DNA from: a bacterium | GTDB taxonomy: Bacteria > Hydrothermota > UBA3073 > JACQXS01 > JAQTXJ01 | Direction: 5' to 3' | NCBI GenBank assembly: GCA_041649255.1 | Contig: JBAZNK010000004.1 | Location: 28,647 to 92,646, forward strand | DNA: 64,000 bases | Position numbers and translations under genes: made by a program | Notes under the pieces: generated by a model | Seen by the model: the letters and a program-made list of their open reading frames with translations, nothing else | What the model was told of the DNA's origin: nothing | The model's database searches: none | Shown here: in pieces, positions 13,406 through 46,287 of the stretch | Layout: each line of letters opens with the position of its first letter | Numbering within the stretch: the first letter of the stretch is position 1

Positions 13406-13542
13406 ATAAAAGTTCCCCTTGCTTATTCTTCAATATCAACTTCTATTCTTCTTTTGTTCCCGAGCCTTTAGCTTGCTTAGAACTGGTTTCCCACCCTTAC
13501 TCGTCATTCCCGTGTAAGCGGGAATCCAGTATTTTTGCTGTT

Positions 13543-14520: not shown

Positions 14521-14726
14521 TTATCTCCTCTTTTCTGCACCTGTCTGCCATTTTTTGACAGATATTCCCCATGTTTTATTTCTAATATATATATTTGATA
14601 TTTAATTTTTTTACAGACTCTTTGGTAATAACCATTAGAGCTCGTTATCCCGTTCCAGCGGGGGATTTTTAATTTATCTCTCATTATGCATGCCCATTTC
14701 TCACCCACTACTCATATCTCTTTCTC

Positions 14727-18423: not shown

Positions 18424-18484
18424 AATTATTTCTATAAACTATATTTTTTTAATATTATTTTTCTTACATTTACACTAATCACTT

Positions 18485-22538: not shown

Positions 22539-22922
22539 TCTACCTCCTTCACTTCATTCGGGATATTTACCAGCCATTACCCAAAAGCTTCTAATCCCTT
22601 ACTCCATTTATTTTAAGAATTCCCTTCTTAAAACCATTGCTATGTTTCTTGCTATTTCATCTATTTCAGATGTATTATATAAATCAGTTACTGATTTATT
22701 CTGAATCGTTTTACACCTCTTTGCTACTTTTTTACCGTATTTCTTTTCTCTTTTTTTGTTTCCGTTCATAAATCCTCCATAGCTAAATATCTATATGTAT
22801 TATAGTATAGCAAATTCCGTGTCAAATGTAAAACTCTATAATTCATAGGGATTTCGACAATATATGCAATATGAGATATGAACATTCCCTCCTATTACAG
22901 CTAATTTTCTGCCCATTGTTTA

Positions 22923-25900
22923 TTAGTTATCATTTTTTAAAGTTTTATTTTCTTTAATAATCTTTACTTCTCTATTCAATCTTTCCGATTCCTGTGCAAA
23001 TCTAATAGATTTATCTTTTTCCCCTATTACTCTATAGCAAGTGCTTAAAATTTTATATGCAATCACCTTTTTAAATGCCTCTGTAAGCCTTCCTTCCGAT
23101 ATTAACTTTTCAAGTATCTTAATCGGCTTATTAAAGTTCTTTTGCTGCATAAAAACCATAGCAAGTTGGAAATAATAATACGCCTCTTCTTCTTGAGGTA
23201 GAATAATTACTTCCGGATAAAGTGTGCCTATTCTTTCAATCCCATTTTTAAAAGAGTTTTCTGCCTCTTGATACTTTTCAAGTTTTAAATAATATTCTCC
23301 AAGAAAATAGTACGGCAATGGAGAATTTGGAATAAGCTTGCTCGCAAAAATTACATTTTCAATAGCCTTTTTGAACCCTACTTCTCCTGCACTAACAGCG
23401 CTTTCTATAAGATATTTCAATGCATCATTTTCTTTGTTTATTTTTTCCACTTTCATTTCTTTTTCTTCAATAAACTTTTTTATCCAATCTTTTCCTTCAT
23501 ACCAGCTAATAACCCCATCAATCCCTTTTGCATAATAATAATTTAAAATAAGGGCGTAGCAAGTCTCTAAAAGCGGATCCCTGCTGAACTTGTAACTTTC
23601 TAATTCTTTTTCTGATAACTGCTCCAGTTTGGATACAAGATTTTCGGTATATTTTACTAATTCTTCCCTGTTATAAAAATCACATAAACATCTTCTTTTC
23701 GCTTCTTCCAGACTCCACATATCGGTATGCGGACATTTATAAGACAAAATGCCAAAACTCTCCCCTACTTTTACCTGTCTTTGAATATAACTTTTCAACT
23801 CCTGTTTATGATAATGATAAACGATAGCATCGGCATTATAAACTATTCTGTATTTATTTAGGGTTAATCTTAAACCTAATTCCGAATCCTGCCATCCATA
23901 TTTTAGGCTCTCATCAAACAGACCCGCTTCTTCAAAAGCGCTTCTTCTTAATGATATATTCGGGGCATAAAAATATCTAAATTCAACGTTGTCAGGAGAT
24001 TCAATACTCTCATAAGCAAACTGGATATCCCTGTTTTCTATATAGTTTATAAAATGCGATTTTTCTATTTCAGAAGGCCTTTGAATATACCCTAATACCA
24101 CTGTATTCTCATCCCCTTGTTGATGAGTATTTAAATGCTGCTTTATTAAATCTTTTTTTGCAATTACATCCTGACACGAAAGCAAAATGAATTTTCCCTT
24201 AGCTTCCTGTATCCCCTTATTTGTAGCAGCAGATTGACCTTTATGGGATTGTACATACTGCTTAAATTCACATGGGGCTTTTAATCCTTTAATGGCATCA
24301 ATAGTCCCATCCGTAGAACCATCGTCAACTACGATAATTTCCAAATCATCGGCATTAATACCATCCTGGTTGGCAAACGAATCAATACATTTAAGTAAAA
24401 TTTCTTTGTTATTATAAGAAGGAATAACTACCGATAATAGTTTTTCCTCGGGATACGTAAACTTAACTTTAATTTTATCCATTAAATCGGGTTTTATATG
24501 CCATACGGCAGTATCTTTAGCTTCTATAATCTTATATCCTTTGTTTATTATGCCCAATATAATTTCTTGCAAATTCTTACATTCCTTTGGTATAATTTCC
24601 TTTTTAATAATCATACAAGGAACATTTATGTTCTGAACTACAGTTTTTTCATTTCTGTATTTCTTATAATTTTCCCATACATCATTTTCAAATTCATATA
24701 TAAAATTATACTTAAAGGGCAAACTACTAGGAATAACTATTCCAGCGTCTTTCTTCCTATTTAGGTGACTCATTAAATGTTTATCCCATCGCAATGAGAC
24801 AACAACCCCACTATCCAGTATAGCAATATACTTACCCGAAGAATTTTGAATTATGTAATTTGTAATGTTTTCAAGTTCTTGCTCGTTTTCATATTTAATA
24901 TAAAACTTAAAATTTCGCTCCAATTCTCTGGCAATTTTATCACTTTTTGTCGCAATTAGTATGTCTGATAATTTCTCATCCGTATTAATTACCAAATTTT
25001 CTATAGAAGTTTTCGATATTTCCGTATCCTCCGTTACAATAAAAATTATAGTAAGTTCATTTAACAAATGAGACAACAAAGAAGAATCATAAGAAACTTT
25101 AAACCTTTCCGGGTATTTTTCTTTCGGCTCGGGTAATGTATTCCCAAGGTGAATTAACCTTTTTTCTACCATTTCGACGCTATAATTATCTTTAATAAGA
25201 GCTTTCCCATTTCGAGATAGTCTTTCCCACAATTCTTTATCATTATATACTTTAATTACCTCATTAGCAAAACTCTCAGGCGTATCTGCAATTAATCCGT
25301 GTTTGCCATTTTCTATTCCAATTCCTTCCGCTCCAATTGATGTGGTAACCACCGGAATGCCATTTGCAAGCGCTTCGGTCACTTTTCCTTTCATCCCCGC
25401 CCCATAAGTCAAAGGCGCAACCGAAATGCAACAGGAGTCAAGATATACATTAGTGTCGGGTACATACCCCGTTACGATAATGTCTTCAGACTCAAAAGCT
25501 CTAACTTCCGGAGGAGGAGCATTGCCAACTATAAAAAACTTTATATCCGGTAATTTTTTCTTAATTAAAGGAAATATCTCTTTACAAAAATATAACACCG
25601 CGTCTACATTAGGAGTATGTAAAAAACCTCCTACAAACAAAATATCTCCCCTGTTTTCCCTGCCAATAAAGTCTTCCGTGATTTTATGCGTATTGGGCAA
25701 AATTCTTATATCCAAATTGGGAGATTCCTTTAAAAGCGCTTCTCTATCCGTTTCGCAAACGGTTGTGACTACATCCATTTTTTCATAAGTTGCCAACTCT
25801 TTAATTTTATTATATGTAACTTTTCTAAAAAGAGATGGAATTCCTAAAATTTCTGCTTCTCGGAGTTCTCTCATAAAATGCACATCGTGACTATCCAGCA

Positions 25901-27050
25901 CCGTAACACTTTGTGGAGAAAATTTCCTTATAAAATCTATCCACCTGTCTGCAATATTATAAAATTCCAGAGAAACCAACTTAAATTTATTAAAGGTAAG
26001 CAATGCTTCAATTCCTTCGGGAAAAAGAGGATCATAAATTCCACTAATATGCCGCTTTAAATCACAATGAAAAACTGCTACATCCAATTCTTCCAATTTA
26101 TCTACATATTTTTCATACCCGAGTAAATCTTCCACTATAAACACAACATCATAATATTTCTTTAATATATTTATTTTTTGATACAGTCTCAATCCACCAG
26201 ATGAAGCGTCATACCAGGGAGGATATTCGGCAATTATTAATATTTGTTCTTTTTCTGACGGAACTTTATAAAAAGCGCTCTTATAATTACTTAAAACTTT
26301 TTCCCATTTATTAATAAACTTTTCCCTGTTAACTTCCTGGTGTTTTTTCATCCCGGATTTCACGTCCGTTCCTGCTGTTCCCCCTTCTATATGAGTAACC
26401 AGGCTTTTAGGTTGATACATTACCCTAAGTCCCGCTTCTCTACTTCTAAAACACAAATCAACATCTTCAAAATAGCAGGGACAAAACAATTCATCAAACT
26501 CACCGGTTCTATCTAAAGTACTTCGTTTAATATACATACAAGCGCCTGAAGAATAATCAATCTCTCTCTGATGATTATATTTTGGCTTATCGGGATTATC
26601 TCCCCTGCCGATATTTCGTGTTGCCCCATATCTAAAAATATTTCCTCCCCCTGCTTCATTTATAACACCGGTAGGATAAATAAACTTTGGGGCGACGATA
26701 CCAATATCTTCGGAACTATAAGCGCATTCAATTAATCCTTCAAGCCATCCGTTATGAACTAATGTATCATTATTTAATAACAATATGTCATTCTTTGCAT
26801 AAGTCCTCATAACCTGATTCATAGATAATACAAAACCTACATTCTCAGGGCTATTGATAACATCAACTTTATTTTCTAAACTTTCCAAATATTCTTTAGT
26901 CCCATCCGTACTCGCCTGGTCAAATACGCATATTCTATAATAAGGAGTTTTGGTATTCTTAAAAATACTTTCAATGCAATTCTTTAATAAATCAGCCCTA
27001 TTCCAGGTTGGAATAGTGATTATAACCGGTCTGTTTTTATCTGGTTTCAT
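22923..27050 (-). CDS. Giant multidomain glycosyltransferase: GT2 (GT-A) + GT1/GT4 (GT-B) + second GT2 + C-terminal TPR repeats
   Basis: 1375 aa. N-terminal GT-A (PVIITIPTWNRADLL...DQASTDGT...EDVDLCFR). Central GT-B (LFVGGFLHTPNVDAV...GMKGKVTEALANGIPVVTT). Third domain GT-A (LSVVIPSYNNKEIL...VVDDGSTDGT). C-terminal TPR. Confidence 0.7.
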   Translation of the reverse strand: MKPDKNRPVIITIPTWNRADLLKNCIESIFKNTKTPYYRICVFDQASTDGTKEYLESLENKVDVINSPENVGFVLSMNQVMRTYAKNDILLLNNDTLVHNGWLEGLIECAYSSEDIGIVAPKFIYPTGVINEAGGGNIFRYGATRNIGRGDNPDKPKYNHQREIDYSSGACMYIKRSTLDRTGEFDELFCPCYFEDVDLCFRSREAGLRVMYQPKSLVTHIEGGTAGTDVKSGMKKHQEVNREKFINKWEKVLSNYKSAFYKVPSEKEQILIIAEYPPWYDASSGGLRLYQKINILKKYYDVVFIVEDLLGYEKYVDKLEELDVAVFHCDLKRHISGIYDPLFPEGIEALLTFNKFKLVSLEFYNIADRWIDFIRKFSPQSVTVLDSHDVHFMRELREAEILGIPSLFRKVTYNKIKELATYEKMDVVTTVCETDREALLKESPNLDIRILPNTHKITEDFIGRENRGDILFVGGFLHTPNVDAVLYFCKEIFPLIKKKLPDIKFFIVGNAPPPEVRAFESEDIIVTGYVPDTNVYLDSCCISVAPLTYGAGMKGKVTEALANGIPVVTTSIGAEGIGIENGKHGLIADTPESFANEVIKVYNDKELWERLSRNGKALIKDNYSVEMVEKRLIHLGNTLPEPKEKYPERFKVSYDSSLLSHLLNELTIIFIVTEDTEISKTSIENLVINTDEKLSDILIATKSDKIARELERNFKFYIKYENEQELENITNYIIQNSSGKYIAILDSGVVVSLRWDKHLMSHLNRKKDAGIVIPSSLPFKYNFIYEFENDVWENYKKYRNEKTVVQNINVPCMIIKKEIIPKECKNLQEIILGIINKGYKIIEAKDTAVWHIKPDLMDKIKVKFTYPEEKLLSVVIPSYNNKEILLKCIDSFANQDGINADDLEIIVVDDGSTDGTIDAIKGLKAPCEFKQYVQSHKGQSAATNKGIQEAKGKFILLSCQDVIAKKDLIKQHLNTHQQGDENTVVLGYIQRPSEIEKSHFINYIENRDIQFAYESIESPDNVEFRYFYAPNISLRRSAFEEAGLFDESLKYGWQDSELGLRLTLNKYRIVYNADAIVYHYHKQELKSYIQRQVKVGESFGILSYKCPHTDMWSLEEAKRRCLCDFYNREELVKYTENLVSKLEQLSEKELESYKFSRDPLLETCYALILNYYYAKGIDGVISWYEGKDWIKKFIEEKEMKVEKINKENDALKYLIESAVSAGEVGFKKAIENVIFASKLIPNSPLPYYFLGEYYLKLEKYQEAENSFKNGIERIGTLYPEVIILPQEEEAYYYFQLAMVFMQQKNFNKPIKILEKLISEGRLTEAFKKVIAYKILSTCYRVIGEKDKSIRFAQESERLNREVKIIKENKTLKNDN

Positions 27051-27143: not shown

Positions 27144-27527
27144 TCAATACACCATCCTTTTTACTTCACACTTTTTCTCTCCAAAATTTAAAAGAAGTCC
27201 TACTTTTACGTTTGTAGTCTTAAGGTAATTTGATAGTTGAGATTCATTTTTGGAATTGTACTCTTTGTCTACTTTGAGTTCTACCAATACTTTTTCCTCG
27301 ACATAAATGTCACAAGCAAAATCTCCAACAGGTTCTCCTTTATAATGAACACTTATAGAGAATTCACTTTTGGCTTCTATGCCTCTTAATCTAAGTTCCA
27401 CAAGTAATGCATTTTTATATACCTTTTCTAAAAAGCCATATCCCAAGTTTTTGTAAACCTCAAAAGCAGCCCCAATTATCTTCTCTGTTAACTCTTTGTA
27501 TAAAAATTCCTCTGATTTCTGCGTCAT
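27144..27527 (-). CDS. GxxExxY family protein (PD-(D/E)XK-like; family typically found in rRNA intervening sequences)
   Basis: 127 aa; family signature LTEKIIGAAFEVYKNLGYGFLEKVYKNAL...; flanked by inverted repeats. Confidence 0.8.
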   Translation of the reverse strand: MTQKSEEFLYKELTEKIIGAAFEVYKNLGYGFLEKVYKNALLVELRLRGIEAKSEFSISVHYKGEPVGDFACDIYVEEKVLVELKVDKEYNSKNESQLSNYLKTTNVKVGLLLNFGEKKCEVKRMVY

Positions 27528-27610
27528 TCTTTAACTATAAGTTTTATTGGTTTTTTATTTGTTTAACTTTATTCATTATTATATTCTCTATTAACTTTTT
27601 GTATAAGACA

Positions 27611-27640
27611 TTTCTGTGATTTCTGTGTCATTCTGTGGCT
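27611..27640. repeat. Right arm of the inverted repeat flanking the GxxExxY gene; additional CTGTG units follow up to 27720
   Basis: See left arm; extra TCTGTGACTA, ATCTGTGTGCTA and TTTCTGTTTTTG units plus the hairpin CCTGCCTGACGGCAGGCAGG at 27681-27700. Confidence 0.55.
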
Positions 27641-27758
27641 ATAATTTTTATCTGTGACTATCCTTCTACTCCCTGCCTGACGGCAGGCAGGTGTGCAAAT
27701 CTGTGTGCTAATTTTTCTGTTTTTGTTTTTCTTTTCCATTTTCTCTTTGGTCCACTCC

Positions 27759-28805
27759 CTATAATTTTATACACTTCTCAAGAACTTTTTCCGGCAAAAT
27801 AATTGACATACAATCCTTTTCGCATTTACTTTTATAGCACCCCAAACAATCCAATTCAGGTTCAATAATCTCTCCAAGCCCATATAATTCAAACTCATTT
27901 CTGTTGAAAATATTATTCAGAAGTATTATTTTCTTTTCAAATCCTATCGCTATATGTAAAGCCATAGTGACCTGTGTAACCACAACTTCGCACACATTTA
28001 CGACCCAAAGAAAATCCTTTAAACTGAAAGTCCCCCAGTATTCTGCTCCGCTTTTTGTTTTTATCCTTTTGTTTTTTTCGTCTTCCTGCGGTCCTCCCAA
28101 AAGAAGCGGAATAAAACCGGCGCTTTTTAATTTTTTAGCTAATGTTACCCAGTTTTCTTCGCTCCAGTTACGAGTTTCCCATCTCCCCCCGCATCCCGTA
28201 TTTAATCCTACTATGCGACCTTTTAATTTTGGGAGTTCCGGGGACTTACCTTTAAGTTCAAGAATATATTTTTCGCCTGAGAAATTAAATCCGCAAACTT
28301 CAAATATTTCCTCAACATAATGTTTTTTATTAGCTTTTTCTATATCATCCCATAATCCCGTTAAAAACTTATGTTCGGCATCTTTATCAATAGAACTGCA
28401 TTTGCCGTCTTTAAGAATAAAACCCTTTTTTATATCCGCAGAAATAAGCCTTGCAAGGGAACAAGTTTCCTTGTCTTTATCAAGATTGTAAAGTATGTCA
28501 AACTTATCTCCTAAAAGAGATACGACGTTTGAAAGCTCAAACTTCATAGGATAATCTACGATAGAAGGCAAAAGTTCCGGGAATATGCTTAACCATGTAA
28601 TCTCGCTATCGGGATATATCTCTTTGAGTCTTCTTAAAATTGGAGTTGTTCTTATAACGTCTCCTGCTGCGCCAAATTTTATTATTAGAATTCTTTTTGA
28701 CACCTCTTTATAATATTCACAATTGTCACAATGAACTCCCTTTTCTTTATGGAATTTACAAGGAATATCCCCTTTGTAAAACCTGCAATTAGTTTTAATT
28801 TTCAT
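27759..28805 (-). CDS. GT9 family glycosyltransferase (heptosyltransferase-like) with N-terminal Cys4 zinc-ribbon-like motif
   Basis: 348 aa; GT9 motif (ILIIKFGAAGDVIRTTPILRRL); N-terminal C-x7-C-x9-C-x2-C; overlaps the start of the upstream radical-SAM gene by 11 nt (translational coupling). Confidence 0.6.
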   Translation of the reverse strand: MKIKTNCRFYKGDIPCKFHKEKGVHCDNCEYYKEVSKRILIIKFGAAGDVIRTTPILRRLKEIYPDSEITWLSIFPELLPSIVDYPMKFELSNVVSLLGDKFDILYNLDKDKETCSLARLISADIKKGFILKDGKCSSIDKDAEHKFLTGLWDDIEKANKKHYVEEIFEVCGFNFSGEKYILELKGKSPELPKLKGRIVGLNTGCGGRWETRNWSEENWVTLAKKLKSAGFIPLLLGGPQEDEKNKRIKTKSGAEYWGTFSLKDFLWVVNVCEVVVTQVTMALHIAIGFEKKIILLNNIFNRNEFELYGLGEIIEPELDCLGCYKSKCEKDCMSIILPEKVLEKCIKL

Positions 28806-31800
28806 TGCCCCTTCCTTTTAGAAATGCTTCTCCTATTTGTGGCATAATGGTGCATAAAAGCCAGCAATGGCATTTCCCGCTGTTCATAAAATCCCGAATC
28901 TTAGTTGCTTTGGACGATTCCCATAATTTATCAAAAGGAGTATCTTTAACATTCCCAACTAACATCTGTTTATTCATCGGACAGAAAAAAAGGTCTCCTT
29001 GAGGATTAAACATAGCAAAATGCACTCCTGCCATACACTTCTTAAAAACTCTGGTAGGATGTAATTGATATTCAACTAAATTCGACCAGAAATATAATTG
29101 CGCAAGTAACCCTATATCGCTTGTAATTGATGTCGTTCTTTTTGCATCAATCATTTTTTTAAGTATTATTTCGATAATGCCTTGAACTTCCAATAACTTT
29201 TCCTTGCTCCATTTCGGGTCCGGCGGTAATACAAATTGAGCCGAAAATATACAATTAAGCCTATTTACAAATTCATAAACAGGCAATAGTTCCGTATAAT
29301 TGTCAGGAGTAACTGTAAAATTAATATTGTAATGAATGTCTTCAAACTCTTTCTGCACTTGAGTTATTGTTCGGACTAAATTATTAAATGCATCCTTTCT
29401 GCCCCTGATTTCATTATGCTTTTCAAATAAGCCGTCAAGAGAAGACCCCAGCCAGATAGATTTTGGCTCATACTTCCTTTTTACCTCCATAAGTTTTTTT
29501 ATCGTTAAATTCGCATCCATACTATTTGTCAAAATTCCAATACTCGCTTCCGGCAACTGTTCTGTTAAGCAACCGCATATTTCTACAAAATCTTTTCTCA
29601 AAAAAGGTTCTCCACCGGAAAGGACTATAGATTTAACATTTTTAAGATATTTGGAATCTCCGATAAACTTCTGAATTTCTTCAAGTGTTAATTGTTTTTT
29701 CTCTAACTCCGGGAATTTGCTGTATTTATCCCACAAATCACAAAAAGTGCATTTACAATTACACCTGTAAGTTAATTCCATATGTAGTTCTTCAGGCCCC
29801 TTCCCTAAATTTATTGCATTATCTATTTTTGGAATTCCTTTTTGAATAGTGTGGTTAATGCTCTCTAAAAGATACTTAAATGGATATCCCTTAATATTAT
29901 GCTCTCTGTACAAGTCCTCTATTTCATAATACAGATTTATTAGAGAAGGGTCTATCTCTTGCGCTTTACGCAGATATGCAATTGCTTCATCTATCTTGCC
30001 TTGCATTTTGCATAAGTATCCCATATTAACGTATGCATCAATATAATCCGGTTTAATTGAAATGGATTTTTTGAAACAACTTTCCCCGTCCTGAAGCTTG
30101 CCAACAGAAACCATTGACACCCCTGTAATATCCCAGATTTCATAATCATCCGGCACGCAAGATAACAATTTTACAAATAGTAAACAGGCTTCTTGTAATT
30201 GTTGGTTAGAAGCCCATTTTTTCCCGAGTTCCAAAACCCATTTTTTTAAATCCGGGTCAATGCTTAATGCTTTTTGAAGCAACTCTTTAGGAAAATCTAA
30301 CTTCCCGGTATTAAAATATAATTTACATAGAATAGAATAAACTTTTGTTGACTCAGGATGCGCTGATAAAACACTTTCCAATTTTAAAATCGCATTCTTG
30401 TAATCTCCTGAATTTATAAAGTTTTCTGCTTCATTTATTTCTTTATCAACTCCCCTTACAGACGGAACTTTTTCGTTAGCTTTTGTATCTTTCCCCGTTC
30501 CCCATTCTTTAATTTCCTTTAAACATTCTTCGTATAAATCCTGTAATCCGATTTTTTGATAGCAGAACGCAAGGTTTTGAATAATAGAGATATTGCGGGA
30601 TTCTTTTTCTATGGAGTTAATAAAATATGGAATTGCTTTTTCAGGTTCTCCTGTATTAAAATAATAATTACCTATGAGATTATTTCTGTTCAGTAATCTT
30701 GGAGCAGGGTAAACACTTGGAACTTTCAAATCCCACGCAAGTTGGCAGAACTCTTCAAATCTTCTTAAACGCACTAAATAAGTATTAGAGCCATCTTTTG
30801 ATTCCCAATACTCTCCTCCTTTACTAAAATCAATGTCAAATTCTTCCTGATGGTCATAAGCATAAGTCCCGGGAGCAAAGCTGCAAAATGCAGGGCAGGG
30901 ATTGACAGTCCCAATATAATCTTTATTTCTTCTTAAAAACTTAAGCGTCTCTCTGAAATCTTCTTCTGTTTCCCCAGGCAAACCAAACATAAAATTAACG
31001 GCACAACTAAGGCCGGCTTTACAACCATCTCTTACTATTTTCTCAGGGTTAATATCTTTTGCCAACAATTTTCCTGCCTTTAACATTAAAGGAACTGAAG
31101 CAGTTTCCATTCCGTATCCTAATGCTACACACCCTGATTGTTTTAATTTAAGTAAAAGTTCATAAGTCATATCCTTTCTCATAATTGCCTGACCGCTCCA
31201 CTGGATTTTCAGCCCATCTTTTACTATGAAATCAGCAAGTTTTTCTAACTCCTTAACACTTCCATTGACCAAACTATCCTGAAAATCAAAGAAACTTCCT
31301 TTTGGATGTTTTTTCAATTGATACAACATTTCCTTATACATATTTTCTGCCGTTCTGAATCGAAATCTTTTCCAGAAAGGACGTTCATTGCAATACACAC
31401 ATTTATTACAGCATCCCCTGCTTGAGATAATTGGAATTTTAAATGGTTCTTTATAATCATTGAAATCGTAATCCGAAAAATCCGGCATTGGCAAAGAATT
31501 AACGTCTTTAATTAACTCTCTATCCCCGCAATCAACCACTTCGCCATTTTTACATATAAGCGTCCCTGCACAAAAATCTACTTTCGGATTTTTAACAATT
31601 TCTTCTAAAGTAACTTCTCCTTCCCCCTGGACAATAAAGTCTACGTTTTCATCTTTAATAATTGCTTTTCCTGCTAAGTCCCTGCTTACATGGGGACCAC
31701 CAAATACAATAATTATTTTGCTGTTTTTTTTCTTAATTTGTTTTGCCAGGTAAAGACTAATATATAAAGAAGAAAAATATATTGAAAATCCAACAACTTT

Positions 31801-33768
31801 TGCTCCACTGCCTAATATTATATCTACATAGTCATTTAAATAATTCTTATGATATTCTATAAACTCATCTACCACGGATGGATTATTCCAGAATGCAAGT
31901 GATTTTTCTAACTCCCAGACATCAGTGTATTTACCTCTTCTCAATTTATAGAGTTCTATATTCAAATCTAAGGAAAGAACTTCATACCCCTGATGTCTCA
32001 CATAAGCAGTCAAACTGGCTAATGCCAGAGGCGGAGTGCTTATTCCCCATGCCGGAGCTTGAACAAGCACAACATCTGCATTCGTAATTTTATTTTTAAT
32101 GTTTGCGTCCGATAAAGACGGAAAATGTTTTTTCATAATATTTTTTACCTCTATTTTCTGGTTATTATCTTTAATTTTACCGCTTTTTTCAAGTTTAAGG
32201 TATTTATCTATAATTTTATTTTTTTTGTTAAGTTCCGCATACAAGGCAGAAAGTTTATCAAATATTTCAGTATTAAACGTTTCTTTAACTAAAGACCTTT
32301 CATAATATTTAGTCGCTTCTTGATATTTCTTTTCATAAAGATAATAATCGCCTATGAGTTTATTCTCGTTAGGTAATTGTTTGAAACCCAATACTATACC
32401 TAATGACTCTAAATGATTAGTAAATTTTTGAAATCTATTTAAACGAATTACATAATTATTTTTTCCGTCTTTACTTTTCCAGTAAACAGCATTATCGTTT
32501 ACTTCTATATTAAATTCTTCCGGGTGAGAATATGCATAACAGCCGGTTGTAAACCCACAAAATCCGGCGCTTGGATTAACTGAGCAATGAGGTCGTAGAT
32601 AGTCAGCATTTCTTGTGAAGAAATCCAAATCGGCTTGAAAATCTTCTTCCGTATCTCCCGGGAAACCGAACATCCAATTCAATCCTATACCTAATTGCGC
32701 TTTATAGCAATCTTTGATAAACTTATCAAAATCGGCATTTTTACACAATAGTTTCCCCATTTTAAGTAATTGTCCTTTTGAAGAATGTTCCATTCCAAAA
32801 CAAAGATGAAAACAGCCAGAATTATGAATTTTCTGCAATAATTCAAATGTCATTTCCGGACGAACGGTCGCTTGCCCCATCCATTCAATACCAAGATTGC
32901 TTTCTATCGCAAGGTCACAAAATTTTTCAAGGGCTTTAACATTACCATTTACCAAAGAATCAGTAAATTCAATTTTTTTTATGTTATATTTAGAAACCTG
33001 GTATTTTACTTCTTCAAAAATTTTCTCCCCTGTTCTGCTTCTAAATTTATACCAAAACACTTTTTCATCGCAATAAATACAATTATTAGGACACCCTCTT
33101 GAAGTTGTAGCCGGTAACATTACAGGCTCTTTATATAATTCAAAAGGAAAATCAGAAAAATCGGCATAAGGCAAAGAATTAAGGTCTGCGATTAATGGTC
33201 TGTCTCCACCGTAATAAATTTTTCCATTTCTGGAAAATAACACGCCTTTTATTGGGTCAAATTCTTCTCCTTTTTCAATAGCTTTGACCAATTCATATAA
33301 AGTTTCTTCCCCTTCCCCGTGAACTACGAAATCTACTTCATTTCTTAAAACAAATTCTTCTCCTTTTATGCCTCTTGCCGCATGGGGACCACCAAAAACG
33401 ATAATCCTGCTCGGGTCTTTCTTTTTAATTTCGGACGCCAATACCAAACTCATTTGTTCCGTAGACCATAGTATTGTAAAACCGATTATTTTAGAGCCGG
33501 AATTTAAAATCTCATCTACGTATCTATCTATTAATTTCTTATGTGCCTTTACAAAATTGCTTACCGCTTGAATATCGCCCCAGAATCCTTCGTTTAATGT
33601 CCACGCATTTGCATATTTAGTATCCTTGAATTCATTATACAATTCAATATTAATGTCCCTCTTGTAAACTTCATAACCGTAAGATTTTAAATAAGCAGAT
33701 AAACAAGCTATAGCAAAAGGAGGGCTTTGTCTTCCCCATGCAGGTGTCTGGATTAATGCTATTTTCAT
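28795..33768 (-). CDS. Giant tri-radical-SAM protein: two tandem B12-binding (class B) radical-SAM domains, TPR linkers, and a C-terminal SPASM/twitch-type radical-SAM domain
   Basis: 1657 aa. Domain 1 (KIALIQTPAWG...TSRGCPNNCIYCDE: CxxxCxxC). Domain 2 (VVLVQAPAWGISTPP...SSRGCCNKCVYCNE). TPR region ~aa 1000-1290. Domain 3 (MELTYRCNCKCTFCD plus C-terminal Cys-rich CMAGVHFAMFNPQGDLFFCP...GKCHCWLLC). Confidence 0.8.
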   Translation of the reverse strand: MKIALIQTPAWGRQSPPFAIACLSAYLKSYGYEVYKRDINIELYNEFKDTKYANAWTLNEGFWGDIQAVSNFVKAHKKLIDRYVDEILNSGSKIIGFTILWSTEQMSLVLASEIKKKDPSRIIVFGGPHAARGIKGEEFVLRNEVDFVVHGEGEETLYELVKAIEKGEEFDPIKGVLFSRNGKIYYGGDRPLIADLNSLPYADFSDFPFELYKEPVMLPATTSRGCPNNCIYCDEKVFWYKFRSRTGEKIFEEVKYQVSKYNIKKIEFTDSLVNGNVKALEKFCDLAIESNLGIEWMGQATVRPEMTFELLQKIHNSGCFHLCFGMEHSSKGQLLKMGKLLCKNADFDKFIKDCYKAQLGIGLNWMFGFPGDTEEDFQADLDFFTRNADYLRPHCSVNPSAGFCGFTTGCYAYSHPEEFNIEVNDNAVYWKSKDGKNNYVIRLNRFQKFTNHLESLGIVLGFKQLPNENKLIGDYYLYEKKYQEATKYYERSLVKETFNTEIFDKLSALYAELNKKNKIIDKYLKLEKSGKIKDNNQKIEVKNIMKKHFPSLSDANIKNKITNADVVLVQAPAWGISTPPLALASLTAYVRHQGYEVLSLDLNIELYKLRRGKYTDVWELEKSLAFWNNPSVVDEFIEYHKNYLNDYVDIILGSGAKVVGFSIYFSSLYISLYLAKQIKKKNSKIIIVFGGPHVSRDLAGKAIIKDENVDFIVQGEGEVTLEEIVKNPKVDFCAGTLICKNGEVVDCGDRELIKDVNSLPMPDFSDYDFNDYKEPFKIPIISSRGCCNKCVYCNERPFWKRFRFRTAENMYKEMLYQLKKHPKGSFFDFQDSLVNGSVKELEKLADFIVKDGLKIQWSGQAIMRKDMTYELLLKLKQSGCVALGYGMETASVPLMLKAGKLLAKDINPEKIVRDGCKAGLSCAVNFMFGLPGETEEDFRETLKFLRRNKDYIGTVNPCPAFCSFAPGTYAYDHQEEFDIDFSKGGEYWESKDGSNTYLVRLRRFEEFCQLAWDLKVPSVYPAPRLLNRNNLIGNYYFNTGEPEKAIPYFINSIEKESRNISIIQNLAFCYQKIGLQDLYEECLKEIKEWGTGKDTKANEKVPSVRGVDKEINEAENFINSGDYKNAILKLESVLSAHPESTKVYSILCKLYFNTGKLDFPKELLQKALSIDPDLKKWVLELGKKWASNQQLQEACLLFVKLLSCVPDDYEIWDITGVSMVSVGKLQDGESCFKKSISIKPDYIDAYVNMGYLCKMQGKIDEAIAYLRKAQEIDPSLINLYYEIEDLYREHNIKGYPFKYLLESINHTIQKGIPKIDNAINLGKGPEELHMELTYRCNCKCTFCDLWDKYSKFPELEKKQLTLEEIQKFIGDSKYLKNVKSIVLSGGEPFLRKDFVEICGCLTEQLPEASIGILTNSMDANLTIKKLMEVKRKYEPKSIWLGSSLDGLFEKHNEIRGRKDAFNNLVRTITQVQKEFEDIHYNINFTVTPDNYTELLPVYEFVNRLNCIFSAQFVLPPDPKWSKEKLLEVQGIIEIILKKMIDAKRTTSITSDIGLLAQLYFWSNLVEYQLHPTRVFKKCMAGVHFAMFNPQGDLFFCPMNKQMLVGNVKDTPFDKLWESSKATKIRDFMNSGKCHCWLLCTIMPQIGEAFLKGRGNEN

Positions 33769-41752: not shown

Positions 41753-41938
41753 TTATTCCTAATGCCTTTTTTAAATCAGCAAGTTCCGTGTCATTTATTA
41801 AAATATTCTGAACTCTCTTATATCATAAACATTTAAAGCTTTATTTAAAATACAAAAATATTTTCAATGTGGAAAATATTTCCTATCTAATAGGCAAAGA
41901 ACTAACTATTTTTTAATCACAAGAATGGATTATTAAAA

Positions 41939-42208
41939 ATGCTTGACTTTTTAAATATTAAGATTAATTGTTTTAACAGAATGGCGATTATCAAGAGAGA
42001 TAAGATTATAATTGAAGGTGAAGAAAATATAGGACTATCTCCTTCTCAACAGTCTATTCCTGTAGATACCCCGAATAATACAGAGTTAAAGGAGCCCGGG
42101 ATAAGTATAAACAAAGCAAATGGCATAGTTAACAGTATAGACATATTATGTACTTGTGGGCGTAAGATTCATATAGATTGTGAATACGAGGAAAAACCAA
42201 AAGCATAA
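41939..42208 (+). CDS. Small hypothetical protein with C-terminal Cys/His cluster, divergent from the modification island
   Basis: 89 aa ORF; ...ILCTCGRKIHIDCEYEE; no family assignment possible by eye. Confidence 0.3.
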   Translation: MLDFLNIKINCFNRMAIIKRDKIIIEGEENIGLSPSQQSIPVDTPNNTELKEPGISINKANGIVNSIDILCTCGRKIHIDCEYEEKPKA

Positions 42209-42263
42209 TTAGAAAATAGAAAAATAGGACATCCCGCTTTGACGGGTATCTGATAAATCCTTT

Positions 42264-43520
42264 ATGAATAATAATTATAAAGTTCTTGTTTATGATTCCT
42301 CTTACGAAGTATGCAACACGCTAAAGAATATTCTAAAAGATTTTAATTTCGAAATAGTAGAGTGTACAAATGTAAAAGATTTTTTTAAGTTTCTTGAAAG
42401 TATATTTTTTAATATCGCCTTTTTTGACACAGAAAACAAAGATAAAATCGAGATAGATATTTTTCAGAAATTTAAGATGGCTATGAATCCTGATATAAAT
42501 ATTATTTTAACATCTACAGTTCCCAAAGTTGAAATTGCAATTCGCGGCATTAAGTTCGGAATTTTAGATTATTTAACAAAACCTCTTAATAAGAAAGAAG
42601 TGTTGGAAAGCGTAAATAAAGTAGTGAACAAAGAACAGCCTTTTGAGAGAACCGGGTTGGGTTTATTAATAGGAGTTTCTCCAAAAATGCAACAACTTTA
42701 TTCTGAAATCTTAAATGTCGCTCCAACAAACTCCACAGTATGCATTCAAGGAGAAAACGGGACCGGCAAAGAATTGATAGCCCAAACCATTCATAATCTT
42801 TCCCTTCGTAAAGACGCGAACTTTATACCTGTAAATTGCAGTGCCATTCCTGAAAGCCTGCTCGAGACAGAATTATTTGGTCACGTAAAAGGCGCATATT
42901 CCGGAGCATCTCGCGATAATCCTGGCATTTTCAGGGCAGCCGAAAAAGGAACCATATTTCTTGATGAAATAGCAGAAATACCACACAGCATTCAGATAAA
43001 ACTCCTAAGGGTTCTTGAAGAAAAAGAAGTCAGATCTATTGGAAGCGCCCAGAATTATAAAATTGATTGTCGCATTATTACAGCTACAAACAAAGATCTT
43101 GAAAGAGCCGTTTTACAAGGAAAAATAAGAGAAGATTTTTTCCATAGACTGTTTGTCGTTTCTATAATAGTCCCTCCGCTTAGAGAAAGAAGAGAAGACA
43201 TTCCCCTTCTAATTGAACACTTCTTAATTTTAACCAAGGGACAAAATAAAAAACAGATTTCGGACGAAGTTCTTGAAGCTTTATGCTCTTATGATTGGCC
43301 CGGAAACGTCAGAGAATTAGAAAACGTGATAGAAAGCGCTTGCGTTACAAGCAGCAGTAATAGTTTAATCAAACTAACCGATATTCCCTTAAAAATAAGA
43401 GGAAGCAAAGGATTCATGCCAAATCGAAAATCTGTTTTATGGGATGACACACAAAAAAGCCTCATTCAAAGGACACTTGCCCAAACAGGCACAACAAACT
43501 CAAAACTGCAAAACTACTAG
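42264..43520 (+). CDS. Sigma-54-dependent response regulator (REC + AAA+ sigma-54 activator; NtrC/FlgR/FlrC-like); the C-terminal Fis-type HTH is in another frame (43490-43606)
   Basis: REC residues (D10, D55, T/S ~82, K ~104); Walker A GENGTGKEL; GAFTGA-type motif (GHVKGAYSGA); ESELFGH-like; the ORF stops just before the HTH NKLKTAKLLGIDRKTLYRKLKRYKI, which is readable in the frame offset by 2. Confidence 0.8.
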   Translation: MNNNYKVLVYDSSYEVCNTLKNILKDFNFEIVECTNVKDFFKFLESIFFNIAFFDTENKDKIEIDIFQKFKMAMNPDINIILTSTVPKVEIAIRGIKFGILDYLTKPLNKKEVLESVNKVVNKEQPFERTGLGLLIGVSPKMQQLYSEILNVAPTNSTVCIQGENGTGKELIAQTIHNLSLRKDANFIPVNCSAIPESLLETELFGHVKGAYSGASRDNPGIFRAAEKGTIFLDEIAEIPHSIQIKLLRVLEEKEVRSIGSAQNYKIDCRIITATNKDLERAVLQGKIREDFFHRLFVVSIIVPPLRERREDIPLLIEHFLILTKGQNKKQISDEVLEALCSYDWPGNVRELENVIESACVTSSSNSLIKLTDIPLKIRGSKGFMPNRKSVLWDDTQKSLIQRTLAQTGTTNSKLQNY

Positions 43521-43792
43521 GCATAGATCGCAAAACATTATACAGAAAACTCAAAAGATATAAAATAGTATCTCCATCACCCCAGACACAAGACACAACA
43601 CAATAAACCAGCACAAAAACAAAACAACCCAATCAAAATAAACTACACATTAAACACACTCAAAATACCCCAACACAAACAAAATCAACCACAATAGTGT
43701 AGCATAAAACTACACCCCAAAACCCCTAACCAACAACACAAAACAACACAGCGTCAATTCGCTACACCACACTGTCGCTCAATGCCTCAGTG

Positions 43793-44005
43793 TGGCAAAT
43801 TGACATATAGGAACAAAATGCCACATTGTAACATAAGGCAAAAAGCCACACCTCGGGATTATTTATCATCACAGTAAAATAACTCAGGGGTATATTGCTA
43901 CACTAGACTGTGGCTAAATAGAACATTGGGGCAAATTGACATATGAGAACAAAAGCCACACCGCAAAGTAAGGCAAAAAGCCACACCTCGAGACTGTTTA
44001 TTATC
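43793..44005. repeat. Two ~75-bp direct repeats (period ~138 bp) with recurring GCCACA/TGTGGC motifs inside a CA-only intergenic region; candidate enhancer (UAS) elements
   Basis: GGCAAATTGACATAT[A/G]GGAACAAAA..GCCACA...TAAGGCAAAAAGCCACACCTCG[G/A]GA.T.TTTAT at 43795-43870 and 43933-44008; long-range inverted repeat GGGGCAAATTGACA (43935) / TGTCAATTTGCCCC (44052). Confidence 0.6.
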
Positions 44006-44150
44006 CTATTAATACAACTTAGGGGTAAATCGCCACATATAGTTGTGTCAATTTGCCCCTGTGGTTATTTAGGACATACTGATTTGTATGATGATGTAAC
44101 TATTTGTTGGGTGTGGGTTTTAGGGTATTAGTGTGAATAATTTTGTATAT

Positions 44151-44165
44151 TGGCACATTTGTTGC
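44151..44165 (+). promoter_or_regulatory. Sigma-54 promoter (TGGCAC-N5-TTGC) upstream of the second activator gene
   Basis: TGGCACatttgTTGCTATTATAATAT; exact -24/-12 consensus; lies inside the track ORF start (44143), so the real start is ATG 44182. Confidence 0.55.
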
Positions 44166-44181
44166 TATTATAATATCTACT

Positions 44182-45231
44182 ATGGCAAAATTAACGGAAT
44201 TATTTTCTGAATTTAACGTTGCTGCAGAACGATTAGAAGGGGCTTACAAGGTTTTACAGGAGAAGGTTGAGCGTGCAAACCTATCCTACGGTTTTGGACC
44301 TCTTGTTGGAAGAACTGAAGGGATGAAGGAAATATACGAGATAATTCGTGCAGTTGCAAAGAGTAGAGCTTCGGTTTTGGTATATGGGGAGTCCGGGACC
44401 GGAAAAGAACTTGTATCAAGAGCAATACACTACGAGAGTAATTGCAAAGATAAACCTTTTATTTCCATAAATTGTGCGGCTATTTCCGAGGGGTTGTTAG
44501 AAAGCGAGCTTTTTGGTCATGAGAAAGGAGCTTTTACCGGAGCATTAGAAAAAAGAAAAGGGAAATTTGAACTTGCCAATGGAGGGACATTACTTCTTGA
44601 TGAAATTTCAGAGATGGGACTTATGCTCCAGGCGAAATTACTTCGTGTATTACAGGAATTTAGGTTTTTTAGAGTAGGCGGTTCCGAAGAAATAAAAGTA
44701 GATGTGAGGATAATTGCCACAACAAACCTTAATCCAAAAGAAGCTATTGAAAAACAAAAACTCAGAGAAGACCTTTTTTACAGGTTAAACGTAGTGAGCG
44801 TTAATATTCCACCATTGAGAGAAAGAAAAGAGGATATTCCTGTTCTTGCGGCTTATTTTTTAAGGAAATATTCCACTTTTTACAATAAACAGGTAAATTC
44901 CATCTCAACAGATGCATTAAAAATTCTTTTAAATTATAACTGGCCTGGAAATGTAAGAGAACTTGAAAATGTAATAGAGAGGGCAGTGATTCTTAATTCT
45001 TCTCCCTCGGTTCTCACTTCACATCTCAATCTTTCCAATAACTCAAATGATGTGCAATTAAACGGACTTATTGGATTATCTTTAGATGAAATAGAAAAGA
45101 AAGTTATTATTGAAACATTAAAAAAGAATAATGGGAACCGGACAAATACTGCTAAAATGTTAAAAGTAAGTATCCGGACAATAAGAGAAAAAATCAGGCA
45201 ATATAAAAAAGATGGGGAAATAATTGACTAA
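44182..45231 (+). CDS. Sigma-54-dependent transcriptional activator lacking any receiver/sensor domain (PspF-like: ~40-aa N-terminal helix + AAA+ + Fis HTH)
   Basis: GESGTGKELVSRAIH Walker A; GAFTGA (EKGAFTGAL); ESELFGH; intact C-terminal HTH (NRTNTAKMLKVSIRTIREKIRQY). Confidence 0.8.
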   Translation: MAKLTELFSEFNVAAERLEGAYKVLQEKVERANLSYGFGPLVGRTEGMKEIYEIIRAVAKSRASVLVYGESGTGKELVSRAIHYESNCKDKPFISINCAAISEGLLESELFGHEKGAFTGALEKRKGKFELANGGTLLLDEISEMGLMLQAKLLRVLQEFRFFRVGGSEEIKVDVRIIATTNLNPKEAIEKQKLREDLFYRLNVVSVNIPPLRERKEDIPVLAAYFLRKYSTFYNKQVNSISTDALKILLNYNWPGNVRELENVIERAVILNSSPSVLTSHLNLSNNSNDVQLNGLIGLSLDEIEKKVIIETLKKNNGNRTNTAKMLKVSIRTIREKIRQYKKDGEIID

Positions 45232-45315
45232 TAGGTGGAGTTTTTTGCCTATTGTAAAAAAAAGTAGTTTTATGAATTTATTATTTTATATACCTATTAT
45301 AGGTAGTGTTAATTT

Positions 45316-45330
45316 TGGCACGAAATTTGC
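45316..45330 (+). promoter_or_regulatory. Sigma-54 promoter (TGGCAC-N5-TTGC) of the flgB operon
   Basis: TGGCACgaaatTTGCTATTATAAATAT, 19 nt upstream of the flgB ATG; same downstream TATTATAA(A)TAT box as the 44151 promoter. Confidence 0.6.
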
Positions 45331-45348
45331 TATTATAAATATATTACA

Positions 45349-45759
45349 ATGAATAGTATTTTTAACGATATGGGTTTTGGCGCTACAAAAAAAGGGTTGG
45401 ATGTTAGCGCTTTGAGAAACAAGGTAATTGCCCAGAATATTTCAAATGTCTCAACGCCGGGATATTCTTCGTCAAAAGTAAAGTTTGAAGAGCTTCTTGA
45501 CGAAAAACTCGGGTTCAAATTATCCGGGACACGCACAAATCAAAGTCATCTACCCGTTGGCAGGGCAAATAACGAAATTAACAACGTAAATCCCTTAGTT
45601 GAAACATCAACTGATCCGATTCCGGCTGGGAAAGTCAACAACATAGAGATAGACAAAGAAATAGTTTCGCTTGCAAAAAATTCTTTAGATTGGGATACGT
45701 ATGTTAATTTGATTTCTTTCAAATATAGGCTTTTAACGCTAAGTATAAGAAGACAATAA
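45349..45759 (+). CDS. flgB: Flagellar basal-body rod protein FlgB
   Basis: 136 aa; N-terminal rod motif (LDVSALRNKVIAQNISNVSTPGY). Confidence 0.85.
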   Translation: MNSIFNDMGFGATKKGLDVSALRNKVIAQNISNVSTPGYSSSKVKFEELLDEKLGFKLSGTRTNQSHLPVGRANNEINNVNPLVETSTDPIPAGKVNNIEIDKEIVSLAKNSLDWDTYVNLISFKYRLLTLSIRRQ

Positions 45760-45783
45760 CAAAAATAAAACGGAGGTTATTAT

Positions 45784-46287
45784 ATGGGATGGTTTCCGGG
45801 AATTGACATAAGCGCGTCCGGGCTTTATGCGCAGCGTGTCAAACTAAATCAAGTAGCAAACAATATTGCAAATATAAATACGACCCGTAGTTTTTCGGGT
45901 GGACCTTATCGCAGACACGAGGTTTTATTGAAATCGGAAGATAATTTTTCGCAGCATCTTAGTGGACTGGAAGCTACACAAACGCCTCTTTCTTTGACAC
46001 ATCCTCGTCATATGCCATCGCTTGACGCTATGGGATCAGAATCCACACGGCAAAGACAAGGCGTAGCAGTAGATGAAGTAACTGAAGATACCGTAACTCC
46101 CTTTAAGACGGTATATAATCCTTCTCATCCGGATGCAGATAAGGATGGTTACGTAAAATTACCGAATGTAGACATTACTAAAGAACTTACGGATATGGTA
46201 ATAGCCAAAAGGGCTTACGAAGCAAATGTTGCATCAATTAATGCGAGTAAATCAATGGCAAGAACAGCACTTGACATAGGGAGATAA
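45784..46287 (+). CDS. flgC: Flagellar basal-body rod protein FlgC
   Basis: 167 aa; SASGLYAQRVKLNQVANNIANINTTRS N-terminus and conserved C-terminus (IAKRAYEANVASINASKSMARTALDI). Confidence 0.85.
   Translation: MGWFPGIDISASGLYAQRVKLNQVANNIANINTTRSFSGGPYRRHEVLLKSEDNFSQHLSGLEATQTPLSLTHPRHMPSLDAMGSESTRQRQGVAVDEVTEDTVTPFKTVYNPSHPDADKDGYVKLPNVDITKELTDMVIAKRAYEANVASINASKSMARTALDIGR

Follow-up and report, generated by a model that had tools for sequence, protein, structure and literature searches.

A candidate enhancer array between two sigma-54 activator genes of a flagellar cluster, flanked by mirror-image tracts of unusual composition, in an uncultured bacterial lineage

Introduction

The NtrC site of the Escherichia coli promoter glnAp2 reads TGCACC-N5-GGTGCA, and the activators FlbD and FleQ have known dyad sites close to flagellar sigma-54 promoters. 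The FleQ box is unrelated to GTGGC-N5-GCCAC, the motif with which the present paper is concerned, and a literature search for the consensus of the FlbD ftr sites returned nothing. Enhancers of sigma-54 promoters usually lie 80-150 bp upstream of the promoter and act by DNA looping, often with the help of IHF (PMC4987338). Here we analyse a region in which the GTGGC-N5-GCCAC motif is repeated many times. It lies between two genes for sigma-54 activators (bacterial enhancer-binding proteins, bEBPs), which we call bEBP1 (upstream) and bEBP2 (downstream), in a 64-kb stretch of DNA from an uncultured bacterium (GTDB phylum Hydrothermota; GenBank assembly GCA_041649255.1, contig JBAZNK010000004.1, positions 28,647 to 92,646 of the forward strand) whose nearest named relatives carry the label candidate division WOR-3. 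This stretch, at its full length, is referred to as the window, and coordinates are positions in it unless a relative is named.

The same region contains a tract whose plus strand is almost exclusively C and A. In Pseudomonas, the A/C-rich RNA CrcZ is encoded directly downstream of cbrB. Composition rules for Rho utilization (rut) sites call for at least 78 nt with a C/G ratio above 1 and a C every 11-13 nt (PMC6407284). In E. coli, the percentages of CA, CAC, ACA, AAC and CAA are positively correlated with Rho termination (PMC6144790), and of those aptamers for RNA polymerase that bring about Rho termination and relieve transcriptional interference, 28.5% have a CA-rich motif in common (PMC6847712).

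Results

The window is a flagellar gene cluster. The account that we lean towards for the region between positions 43521 and 44181 is that of a transcriptional control region of bEBP2 with putative CA-rich insulator flanks. That its core consists of the broken 3' end of bEBP1, a candidate NtrC-type enhancer and a conserved sigma-54 promoter, taken jointly, we regard as quite probable. The features of the region and of its surroundings are collected in Table 1.

Table 1. Positions of the features discussed in the text. Relatives (L161, L163, L166) are numbered along their own loci.
Feature	Position	Strand	Description
bEBP1, upstream sigma-54 activator gene	42264-43606	+	receiver, AAA+ and HTH_8; open reading frame cut at 43520
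CA tract	43607-43750 (about 145 nt)	+	A 79, C 47, T 14, G 4; non-coding; dyad e0 embedded
Dyad e0	43699-43713		GTAGCATAAAACTAC; 52 bp before a1, the same e-to-a spacing as in later units; inside the CA tract
Tandem unit 1	43751-43886		a1 43751, b1 43774, c1 43792, d1 43810, e1 43835
Tandem unit 2	43887-44021		a2 43887, b2 43910, c2 43928, d2 43945, e2 43970
Partial unit 3	44022-44065		a3 44022, b3 44045
G+T-rich, C-poor patch	44066-44140 (75 nt)	+	between array and promoter
Promoter block of bEBP2	44146-44178	+	TATATTGGCACATTTGTTGCTATTATAATATCT; 33 nt invariant in the window, L164, L165, L167 and L168
bEBP2, downstream activator gene	44182-45231	+	349 aa; AAA+ and HTH_8, no receiver domain (Pfam)
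Second perfect sigma-54 promoter	45316-45330	+	TGGCACGAAATTTGC; ends 18 nt before the flgB ATG; no dyad array
TGACAC-type elements, window	41793-41778, 22824-22809	-	upstream of flagellar and glycosylation operons
TGACAC-type elements, L161	5774-5789, 7187-7202		
TGACAC-type element, L163	1379-1394		TGTCAC at 48-63
TGACAC-type elements, L166	414-399, 20-5	-	

Relatives were sought in representative genomes and JGI metagenome contigs, and further ones were obtained from a protein database and contig look-ups; altogether, 168 loci from many phyla (1.38 Mb) were fetched for comparison. The scans of representative genomes and JGI metagenome contigs yielded a single useful relative, the metagenome-assembled genome L001 (94% DNA identity; L164 is the same contig), while their other matches reached about 50-54% protein identity at best and were useless for the intergenic region. 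The lineage is rare and almost without relatives in public data. A Logan contig, L165, shows no difference from the window wherever the two align, and L167/L168 represent a third lineage of the window's clade; four-fold sites differ from the window by 25% in L164 and by 31% in L167. More distant are L161 (syntenic, bEBP2 64% identical, a protein named "candidate division WOR-3" by NCBI), L163 (68% identical, with 220 bp of upstream sequence only) and L166 (bEBP1 58% identical, gap of just 115 bp).

The GCCACA boxes of the region can be recognized as half-sites of a 15-bp dyad, GTGGC-N5-GCCAC, because perfect copies of this dyad exist in L161 and L164. The perfect form, GTGGCAAATCGCCAC, is found once in L164, at site a2, and twice in L161, where GTGTGGCAAATCGCCACAC occurs twice in a 625-bp gap. 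The sequence-only reading had counted at least eight GCCACA/TGTGGC motifs; seven are exact (within 43791-44037), and the others are near-variants, GCTACA and TGTGGT among them, the whole window containing 22 such motifs against 12.5 expected. When up to two mismatches are allowed and the spacer is kept at 5 nt, the intergenic regions hold six dyads in the window, six in L164, eight in L167, five in L161 and one in L166, whereas other spacers between 0 and 12 nt mostly give none, the maximum being three (L161, 7 nt). Six of the eight dyads of this quality in the entire window fall within a 290-bp stretch, and not one of 200 shuffles reached the observed count for L161, nor for L001 (0/200 each).

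With up to three mismatches, 13 sites can be placed (e0 to b3 in Table 1), and the spacings between them recur as 52, 23, 18, 18 and 25 bp, which amounts to about 2.6 units of 135 bp with five sites each. The -24/-12 promoter follows the array, which lies 90-450 bp upstream of it. Two 75-bp direct repeats with a period of about 138 bp had been proposed here; the repeats are indeed diverged copies of each other, but their period is 135-136 bp and they belong to a contiguous tandem array running from about 43740 (or 43699) to about 44060, with some 2.3-2.6 units at 75-78% identity. The two arms of the 14-bp inverted repeat also described earlier (43928-43941 and 44046-44059) are fully complementary (100%).

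The array is present in the window and L165, in L001/L164, in L167/L168 and in L161, and is reduced to one dyad in L166. Its best-conserved element is TGTGTCAATTTGCCCCTGTG (44044-44063), which is the inverted partner of the c sites. In addition, TGACATATAGGAAC (43801-43814, c site) is invariant in all three lineages of the clade, CAAAAAGCCACA in the e sites is among the best-conserved pieces of the array over the same three, the block 43788-43828 is identical in L164, and the L167 orthologue of e0, GTGGCACAAAGCTAC, has one mismatch to the consensus. The best sites in the lineages with intact bEBP1 show 0-1 mismatch. Half-site changes number eight specific to the window and four specific to L164, among 130 positions, which are too few to speak of a decay of the dyads in the strain whose bEBP1 has lost its HTH. 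The array evolves by turnover: weak sites come and go around a small number of strong ones.

The strict spacer, the conservation of the dyad and its position upstream of a conserved -24/-12 promoter favour the suggestion, made in the sequence-only reading, that the array is an enhancer or upstream activating sequence (UAS) for the flanking activators, which would bind to it. Repeated fixed-spacer dyads about 80-500 bp upstream of a -24/-12 element, kept at orthologous promoters, are what a UAS would look like in sequence. GCCACA boxes were also looked for at the other sigma-54 promoters of the 64 kb, as the same reading had envisaged, and the dyad was found at the bEBP2 promoter only. Such confinement would seem to argue for a dedicated regulator rather than against an enhancer. 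It would also be expected if the dyads were operators of a different dimeric factor (a repressor or nucleoid-associated protein, for example), a view with which the degenerate sites of this strain and the single dyad that L166 keeps without a -24/-12 promoter also agree. However, the sites share several features with those of NtrC, namely half-site centres one helical turn apart, many copies, their position, and flanking HTH_8 activators (PMC4987338), and the architecture is conserved together with both activator genes across lineages. We consider operators of another factor improbable.

Two further candidates within the array were discarded. A 62-codon open reading frame (ORF) at 43943-44131 is not regarded as a gene, its ATG being ATA in L167 and no ribosome-binding site preceding it, and a sigma-70 promoter using the TTGACA of the c sites lacks a -10 element at a workable spacing.

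The -24/-12 element downstream of the array, TGGCACATTTGTTGC (44151-44165), is a perfect TGGCAC-N5-TTGC with its GG and GC doublets 10 nt apart, in full agreement with the consensus sigma-54 promoter reported before. The match extends to TGGCACATTTGTTGCT (44151-44166), which is exact, while 1.8 matches with at most one mismatch would be expected in the window. The element is co-oriented with bEBP2 and ends 16 nt before its ATG, and an orthologous block, ATATTGnCAC-N5-TTGCTATTA, is found in L161 and L163. A second canonical promoter precedes flgB, and the two share the extended form TTGCTATTATAA. From the usual sigma-54 geometry, transcription of bEBP2 should start at about 44177, leaving a leader of about 5 nt, and the flgB leader should measure about 7 nt. 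There is no Shine-Dalgarno sequence between either canonical promoter and its ATG, and the mRNAs from both would be nearly leaderless.

As regards the immediate surroundings of this promoter, the equivalent elements in L161 and L163 lie some 140-230 nt upstream of the ATG. A stretch of 124 nt (44141-44264), which takes in the promoter along with bEBP2's first 28 codons, is identical between the window and L164, although four-fold sites overall differ by the 25% given above; this identity may be due to recent recombination or to constraint on a leaderless-type mRNA start. L167 differs there.

Elements of the form TGACAC-N5-TTGCT, in which A replaces the second G of the -24 GG doublet, were also found in the window and in several relatives (Table 1). 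In L161 and L163, TGACAC-type elements stand upstream of bEBP2 and flgB, where the window's clade has the canonical TGGCAC. The pattern TG(G/A/T)CAC-N5-TTGC(A/T) has four matches in the window, all of them intergenic and each with an ATG on the same strand shortly downstream. To our knowledge, the second G of the -24 doublet is nearly invariant in sigma-54 promoters, and the sequences hint that -24 recognition by the sigma-54 of this lineage may be relaxed or altered. These TGACAC promoters may interest specialists of sigma-54 more than the main finding of this work.

Both genes flanking the region encode sigma-54 activators, as previously stated, the Sigma54_activat domain being found in each (Pfam). 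The upstream gene is broken in this strain. Its 418-aa ORF (42264-43520) contains REC, Sigma54_activat and AAA_lid but no HTH_8 (Pfam), while translation of frame 2 past 43520 gives the helix-turn-helix (HTH) and the tail TAKLLGIDRKTLYRKLKRYKIVSPSPQTQDTTQ, followed by TAA at 43604-43606. Relative to L164 and L167, which have one extra A near 43490 and an intact 447-aa bEBP1 with HTH_8, the window carries a 1-nt deletion near that position. L165 shares the deletion, but this is no independent confirmation because L165 may stem from the same population as the window. Since the frame is broken near 43490, the segment 43521-43606, which corresponds to the DNA-binding domain and an S/P/Q/T-rich tail, reads as non-coding; it is the disabled 3' end of bEBP1, out of frame in this strain. 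The true intergenic gap is accordingly 575 bp (43607-44181), not the 650 bp or so given previously. The C+A bias starts inside the S/P/Q/T-rich tail, and the statement that the whole biased stretch is non-coding holds from 43607 onward but not for its first 46 nt or so (43566-43606), which belong to the C-terminal tail of bEBP1.

The truncated bEBP1 may act without DNA binding, be a pseudogene, or reflect an assembly error common to assemblies of the same reads.

The composition of the tract that follows bEBP1 is as extreme as had been claimed. The plus strand at 43560-43790 contains A 111, C 76, T 30 and G 14 (81% C+A), and the peak at 43595-43694 reaches 90%, i.e. 6 standard deviations (SD) above the window mean (0.51, SD 0.063) and higher than any other 100-nt stretch of the 64 kb. 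Among the 1.38 Mb of comparison loci, 100-nt stretches with at least 86% C+A occur only in the orthologous tracts of the clade, the next best value being 80%, and none of 826 flanks (92 nt) located 3' of long ORFs had G <= 2 or A+C >= 80/92. The tract begins directly after the bEBP1 stop codon. Its plus-strand RNA is predicted to be almost unstructured, with a minimum free energy of -6.7 kcal/mol over 189 nt and one small hairpin that is dyad e0, because A and C form the two-letter alphabet that cannot base-pair.

The other flank of the array, to which the sequence-only reading made no reference, is a G+T-rich patch lying just before the promoter. C+A accounts for 29% of the patch in the window and for 19% in L167, where G+T is 81% instead of 71%, at 63% sequence identity. 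On the minus strand, 44060-44137 contains 24 C and 3 G, which equals the highest C-G excess anywhere in the 64 kb, and in L161 too a G+T-rich stretch precedes the promoter-like element. On either side, then, the array has a neighbouring tract that is rich in C+A when read towards it.

The long tract is confined to the window's clade. At the orthologous place, L161 has a C+A-rich stretch of about 45 nt, which is the C+A maximum (over 100 nt) of its 13-kb locus, and the short gap of L166 is C-rich and G-poor without being T-poor. Between the window and L167 the tract is about 60-64% identical, no better than synonymous sites, and a 9-bp indel separates the window from L164. Composition has been kept while the sequence drifted: C+A amounts to 85%, 84% and about 81% in the three lineages of the clade, G to 2/92, 0/80 and 2/87 nt, and A<->C exchanges account for 18 of the 36 positions at which the window and L167 mismatch, against about 20% expected from the 61% share of transitions at four-fold sites. 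The maintained G counts and C+A content, together with the excess of A<->C changes, suggest that the composition of the tract may be under selection.

It is conceivable, on the other hand, that the enhancer and the promoter stand while the CA tract and the G+T patch are functionless, having arisen by slippage or duplication of short CA-rich seeds beside the stop codon and now decaying neutrally. The tract does contain internal repeats (a 34-nt pair at 60-nt spacing, AGACACA x2.7 and AACAACACAA x1.9), has no motif enriched beyond its composition, and is as divergent between lineages as just described. Its long form belongs to one clade, L161 having a short one and L166 no tract as such, and the bEBP1 tail SPSPQTQDTTQ, which is missing in L161 and L166, resembles a read-in to CA-rich sequence. 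Against neutral decay stand the scarcity of G (0-2 per 80-92 nt in three lineages), the A<->C share of 50%, and the C-depleted mirror patch, which is stronger in L167 despite 37% sequence change; moreover, the orthologous spot is the C+A maximum of the L161 locus, and nothing comparable exists in the 1.38 Mb of other loci. We think it somewhat unlikely that the flanks are without function.

Alternatively, the flanks might act as DNA, being contacted by a symmetric assembly (an activator oligomer or a nucleoid protein) or providing flexible CA/TG-step DNA that aids looping in place of IHF. The G+T patch does lie where sigma-54 promoters usually have an IHF site or bend (PMC4987338), and both the mirror symmetry and the conservation of composition without sequence are as this idea would have it. 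Nevertheless, A/T tracts show no helical phasing in either flank or in the whole region, and the CA tract lies beyond the array as seen from the promoter, at a place that requires no loop. We know of no protein recognizing a composition like that of the CA tract, and a DNA-level role of the flanks is, in our opinion, doubtful. Intrinsic DNA curvature was rejected for the tract, the patch and the whole region in the window, L167 and L161, as A/T spectral power at 10-11 bp was not above that of shuffles.

The tract could also be a regulatory RNA, either a CrcZ-like protein sponge or an unstructured leader of bEBP2, read through from bEBP1 and pairing with the G+U patch. Its location 3' of a receiver-type activator gene recalls that of crcZ behind cbrB, its RNA is predicted to be unstructured, and tract and patch can form a long duplex (-32 to -54 kcal/mol). 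That duplex, however, is energetically no better than those of composition-matched shuffles, and the sequence of the tract is not conserved. A specific pairing between tract and patch through three inverted repeats was likewise rejected, with z-scores of -1.4, +0.3 and -1.1 in three genomes and arms that do not co-vary. Neither a -24/-12 element nor a convincing sigma-70 promoter precedes the tract, no plus-strand intrinsic terminator follows it, and no k-mer in it is enriched beyond composition; two terminator-like hairpins on the minus strand were dismissed as dyads e0 and a1 beside T-rich sequence. Intrinsic-terminator-like matches in 1-20000 are at chance level. Rfam returned no match, either on 42000-46000 (E-value up to 10) or at the gathering score over the whole window, and Hfq/Crc-type motifs are not enriched (AANAANAA once against 2.4 expected, ARN repeats once against 2.7). 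With no Shine-Dalgarno sequence in front of bEBP2, an mRNA read through from bEBP1 and carrying a leader would be translated poorly, and the tract is not the leader of the sigma-54 promoter since it lies upstream of it. The proposal of an unstructured CA-rich leader or small RNA therefore retains only its first element, the predicted lack of structure, and a regulatory RNA appears very unlikely.

A 3'-UTR or Rho-loading role fits the tract better. The 78 nt at 43599-43676 contain 25 C and 1 G, those at 43703-43780 contain 31 C and 5 G, and the largest gap between consecutive C residues is 11 nt. The tract conforms to the composition rules of RhoTermPredict for a rut site, and is predicted to be unstructured and untranslated, starting as it does at a stop codon.

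The surrounding genes are those of a flagellar cluster. The minus strand carries flagellin, FliS and FliD together with an island of about 30 kb of glycosyl- and methyl-transferases (Pfam/NCBIfam), and the plus strand carries, in order, a small conserved ORF, bEBP1, bEBP2, flgB, flgC, fliE, fliF, fliG, fliH, fliI and fliJ. No NCBIfam model reached its own cut-off for the activators; the top match of bEBP2 is FlbD, with 376 bits, under the cut-off of 750. The N-terminal 40 residues of bEBP2 are kept in L161 and L166, and both activator genes and the array architecture are kept together across lineages. No histidine kinase gene adjoins the receiver-type activator.

The possibility of a replication origin or recombination site, raised by the sequence-only reading, found little in its favour in this setting. 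Genes to the left of 41752 are all on the minus strand and those to the right of 41939 all on the plus strand, with a reversal of GC and AT skew at the same place, and GCCACA is similar to a DnaA box's 3' part. The switch, however, is found 1.7 kb upstream of the region, where a divergent promoter lies within the flagellar cluster, and given this setting it is a divergent operon boundary at about 41.8 kb; the skew follows the coding strand, one plus-strand gene even having negative skew. Neither dnaA, dnaN nor gyrB is nearby, DnaA boxes are at chance level (TTATCCACA with at most one mismatch 24 times against 21 expected, two of them in the region), and in every relative the repeats go together with the pair of activator genes. 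An origin or recombination site is hardly credible here.

Several other observations were made in the window. The small ORF directly upstream of bEBP1 (89 aa, 41939-42208, plus strand) has no Pfam or NCBIfam match, and a small called gene (72-106 aa) occupies its position in L161, L164, L166, L167 and L168. Two palindromes, CCTATCTAATAGG (41882-41894) and CCTATTATAGG (45293-45303), are the sole instances of CCTAT-N0-5-ATAGG in the 64 kb (0.45 expected). The first lies in the divergent region upstream of the small ORF/bEBP1 operon, and the second stops 12 bp short of the flgB promoter's -24 element; L164 keeps both of them, and L167 the one beside flgB. They are a candidate site of a second regulator, possibly bEBP2.

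In the glycosylation island, the motif CACAGA(A/T) is repeated five times at about 27610-27700 (minus strand), in a 231-bp gap upstream of a PDDEXK_3-family gene (27144-27527), and this gap is among the most G+T-rich plus-strand stretches of the window. Two further gaps, 7513-8278 (766 nt) and 22539-22922 (384 nt), contain no ORF of at least 100 aa and have no Rfam match; the latter has a TGACAC-type promoter, then GGAGG and a short ORF from about 22769 (minus strand). Two very large ORFs, 22923-27050 (1375 aa) and 28795-33768 (1657 aa), both on the minus strand, lie inside the flagellin-linked transferase island.

Discussion

The enhancer and promoter part of the region suggests the following chain of events. 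An HTH_8 dimer of an enhancer-binding protein would bind the dyads, and the bound activator would oligomerize and, like NtrC, reach the polymerase through a DNA loop. Of the two activators, bEBP1 is more likely to be the binder, because the dyad is found at no other promoter of the cluster and its binder is probably a dedicated one. In the resulting cascade, bEBP1, whose receiver domain would make it responsive to a signal, would activate bEBP2, and bEBP2 would drive the structural operons.

The flanks would then protect this arrangement. A polymerase reading into the enhancer from either side would produce a nascent RNA that is unstructured, rich in C and poor in G, and this RNA could be a loading site for Rho, or could behave in the manner of the CA-rich E. 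coli aptamers that bind the polymerase, so as to end read-through. The CA tract would thus stop bEBP1 transcripts before they reach the enhancer and promoter, the mirrored patch would stop antisense transcription coming from the right, and both enhancer and promoter would be insulated from transcriptional interference. That the flanks are Rho- or aptamer-type read-through terminators of this sort is a tentative proposal, which we put forward as possible. Unlikely, in our estimation, is the stronger form of it, in which the two mirror-image tracts make up a dedicated two-sided insulator, kept by selection on composition and not on sequence, through which an incoming polymerase would be removed before displacing activators from the array or occluding the promoter. 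To the best of our knowledge, a purpose-built architecture for the protection of an enhancer has not been described for bacterial enhancers.

A number of facts weigh against this account of the region and should be set beside it. As regards the enhancer, half-site columns are 73% invariant against 58% in the rest of the array, the dyads of the window all have at least two mismatches, and bEBP1, the preferred binder, is without its DNA-binding domain in this strain. The absence of the dyad from the other sigma-54 promoters of the cluster leaves position and geometry as the grounds for assigning it to an enhancer-binding protein. As regards the flanks, the tract diverges at or above the synonymous rate and has acquired indels, so that neutral decay from a purer CA-rich ancestor could yield similar compositions. 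The excess of A<->C changes could partly be an alignment artefact in low-complexity sequence, and L161 and L166 carry just weak versions of the tract. Neither rho nor rpoN is within the 64-kb window. The other gaps of the window have more G than C on the sense strand, save two (C-G +0.04 and +0.05), and none exceeds 20% C; the plus-strand C-G excess of the tract is not unique, as stretches antisense to genes are equally high, and the depletion of T is unnecessary for Rho loading.

The enhancer and promoter are of an ordinary and familiar kind, whereas the CA tract and its mirror image are unusual and unexplained. The former add a predicted motif, GTGGC-N5-GCCAC, and a regulatory wiring for the flagellar genes of an uncultured lineage, which is of use in annotation. 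In composition, the CA tract ranks with the most extreme non-coding stretches that one is likely to meet in bacteria. If the insulator proposal is true, bacteria would protect enhancers from read-through by selection on composition alone, and the locus would be a natural test case for the promotion of termination by CA-rich nascent RNA; if the tract is neutral, it would show how far slippage can drive local composition.

Comparison with known systems places the region as follows. Like CrcZ and CrcY, the CA tract is an A/C-rich stretch directly 3' of a receiver-type sigma-54 activator gene; it differs from them in having no promoter or terminator of its own, no enrichment in AANAANAA, no sequence conservation and no Rfam match. 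With the rut sites and the CA-rich aptamers for RNA polymerase (iRAPs) of E. coli it has in common that it is C-rich, G-poor, predicted to be unstructured and free of ribosomes, at least 78 nt long and provided with closely spaced C residues (PMC6407284, PMC6144790, PMC6847712). It is, however, far more extreme (C/G 12-25, T depleted), longer and mirrored on the other strand.

The flagellar cascades with two activators (FlrA/FlrC in Vibrio, FleQ/FleR in Pseudomonas, and FlbD with its ftr sites in Caulobacter) resemble the present cluster in that the activators head operons of the flgB-fliE-fliF type, and these operons have sigma-54 promoters of their own. Here, in contrast, it is the receiver-less activator, not the receiver-type one, that has the sigma-54 promoter and the candidate enhancer, and a histidine kinase gene is not adjacent. 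Compared with enhancers of the NtrC type, the array has different half-sites (GTGGC/GCCAC), 13 predicted sites derived from a 135-bp five-site duplication and reaching up to 450 bp upstream, and, in this strain, a neighbouring activator without its HTH. It shares with them half-sites of 5-6 bp separated by a 5-bp gap, clustering upstream of a -24/-12 promoter, and an activator gene of the receiver-AAA+-HTH_8 type next door (PMC4987338).

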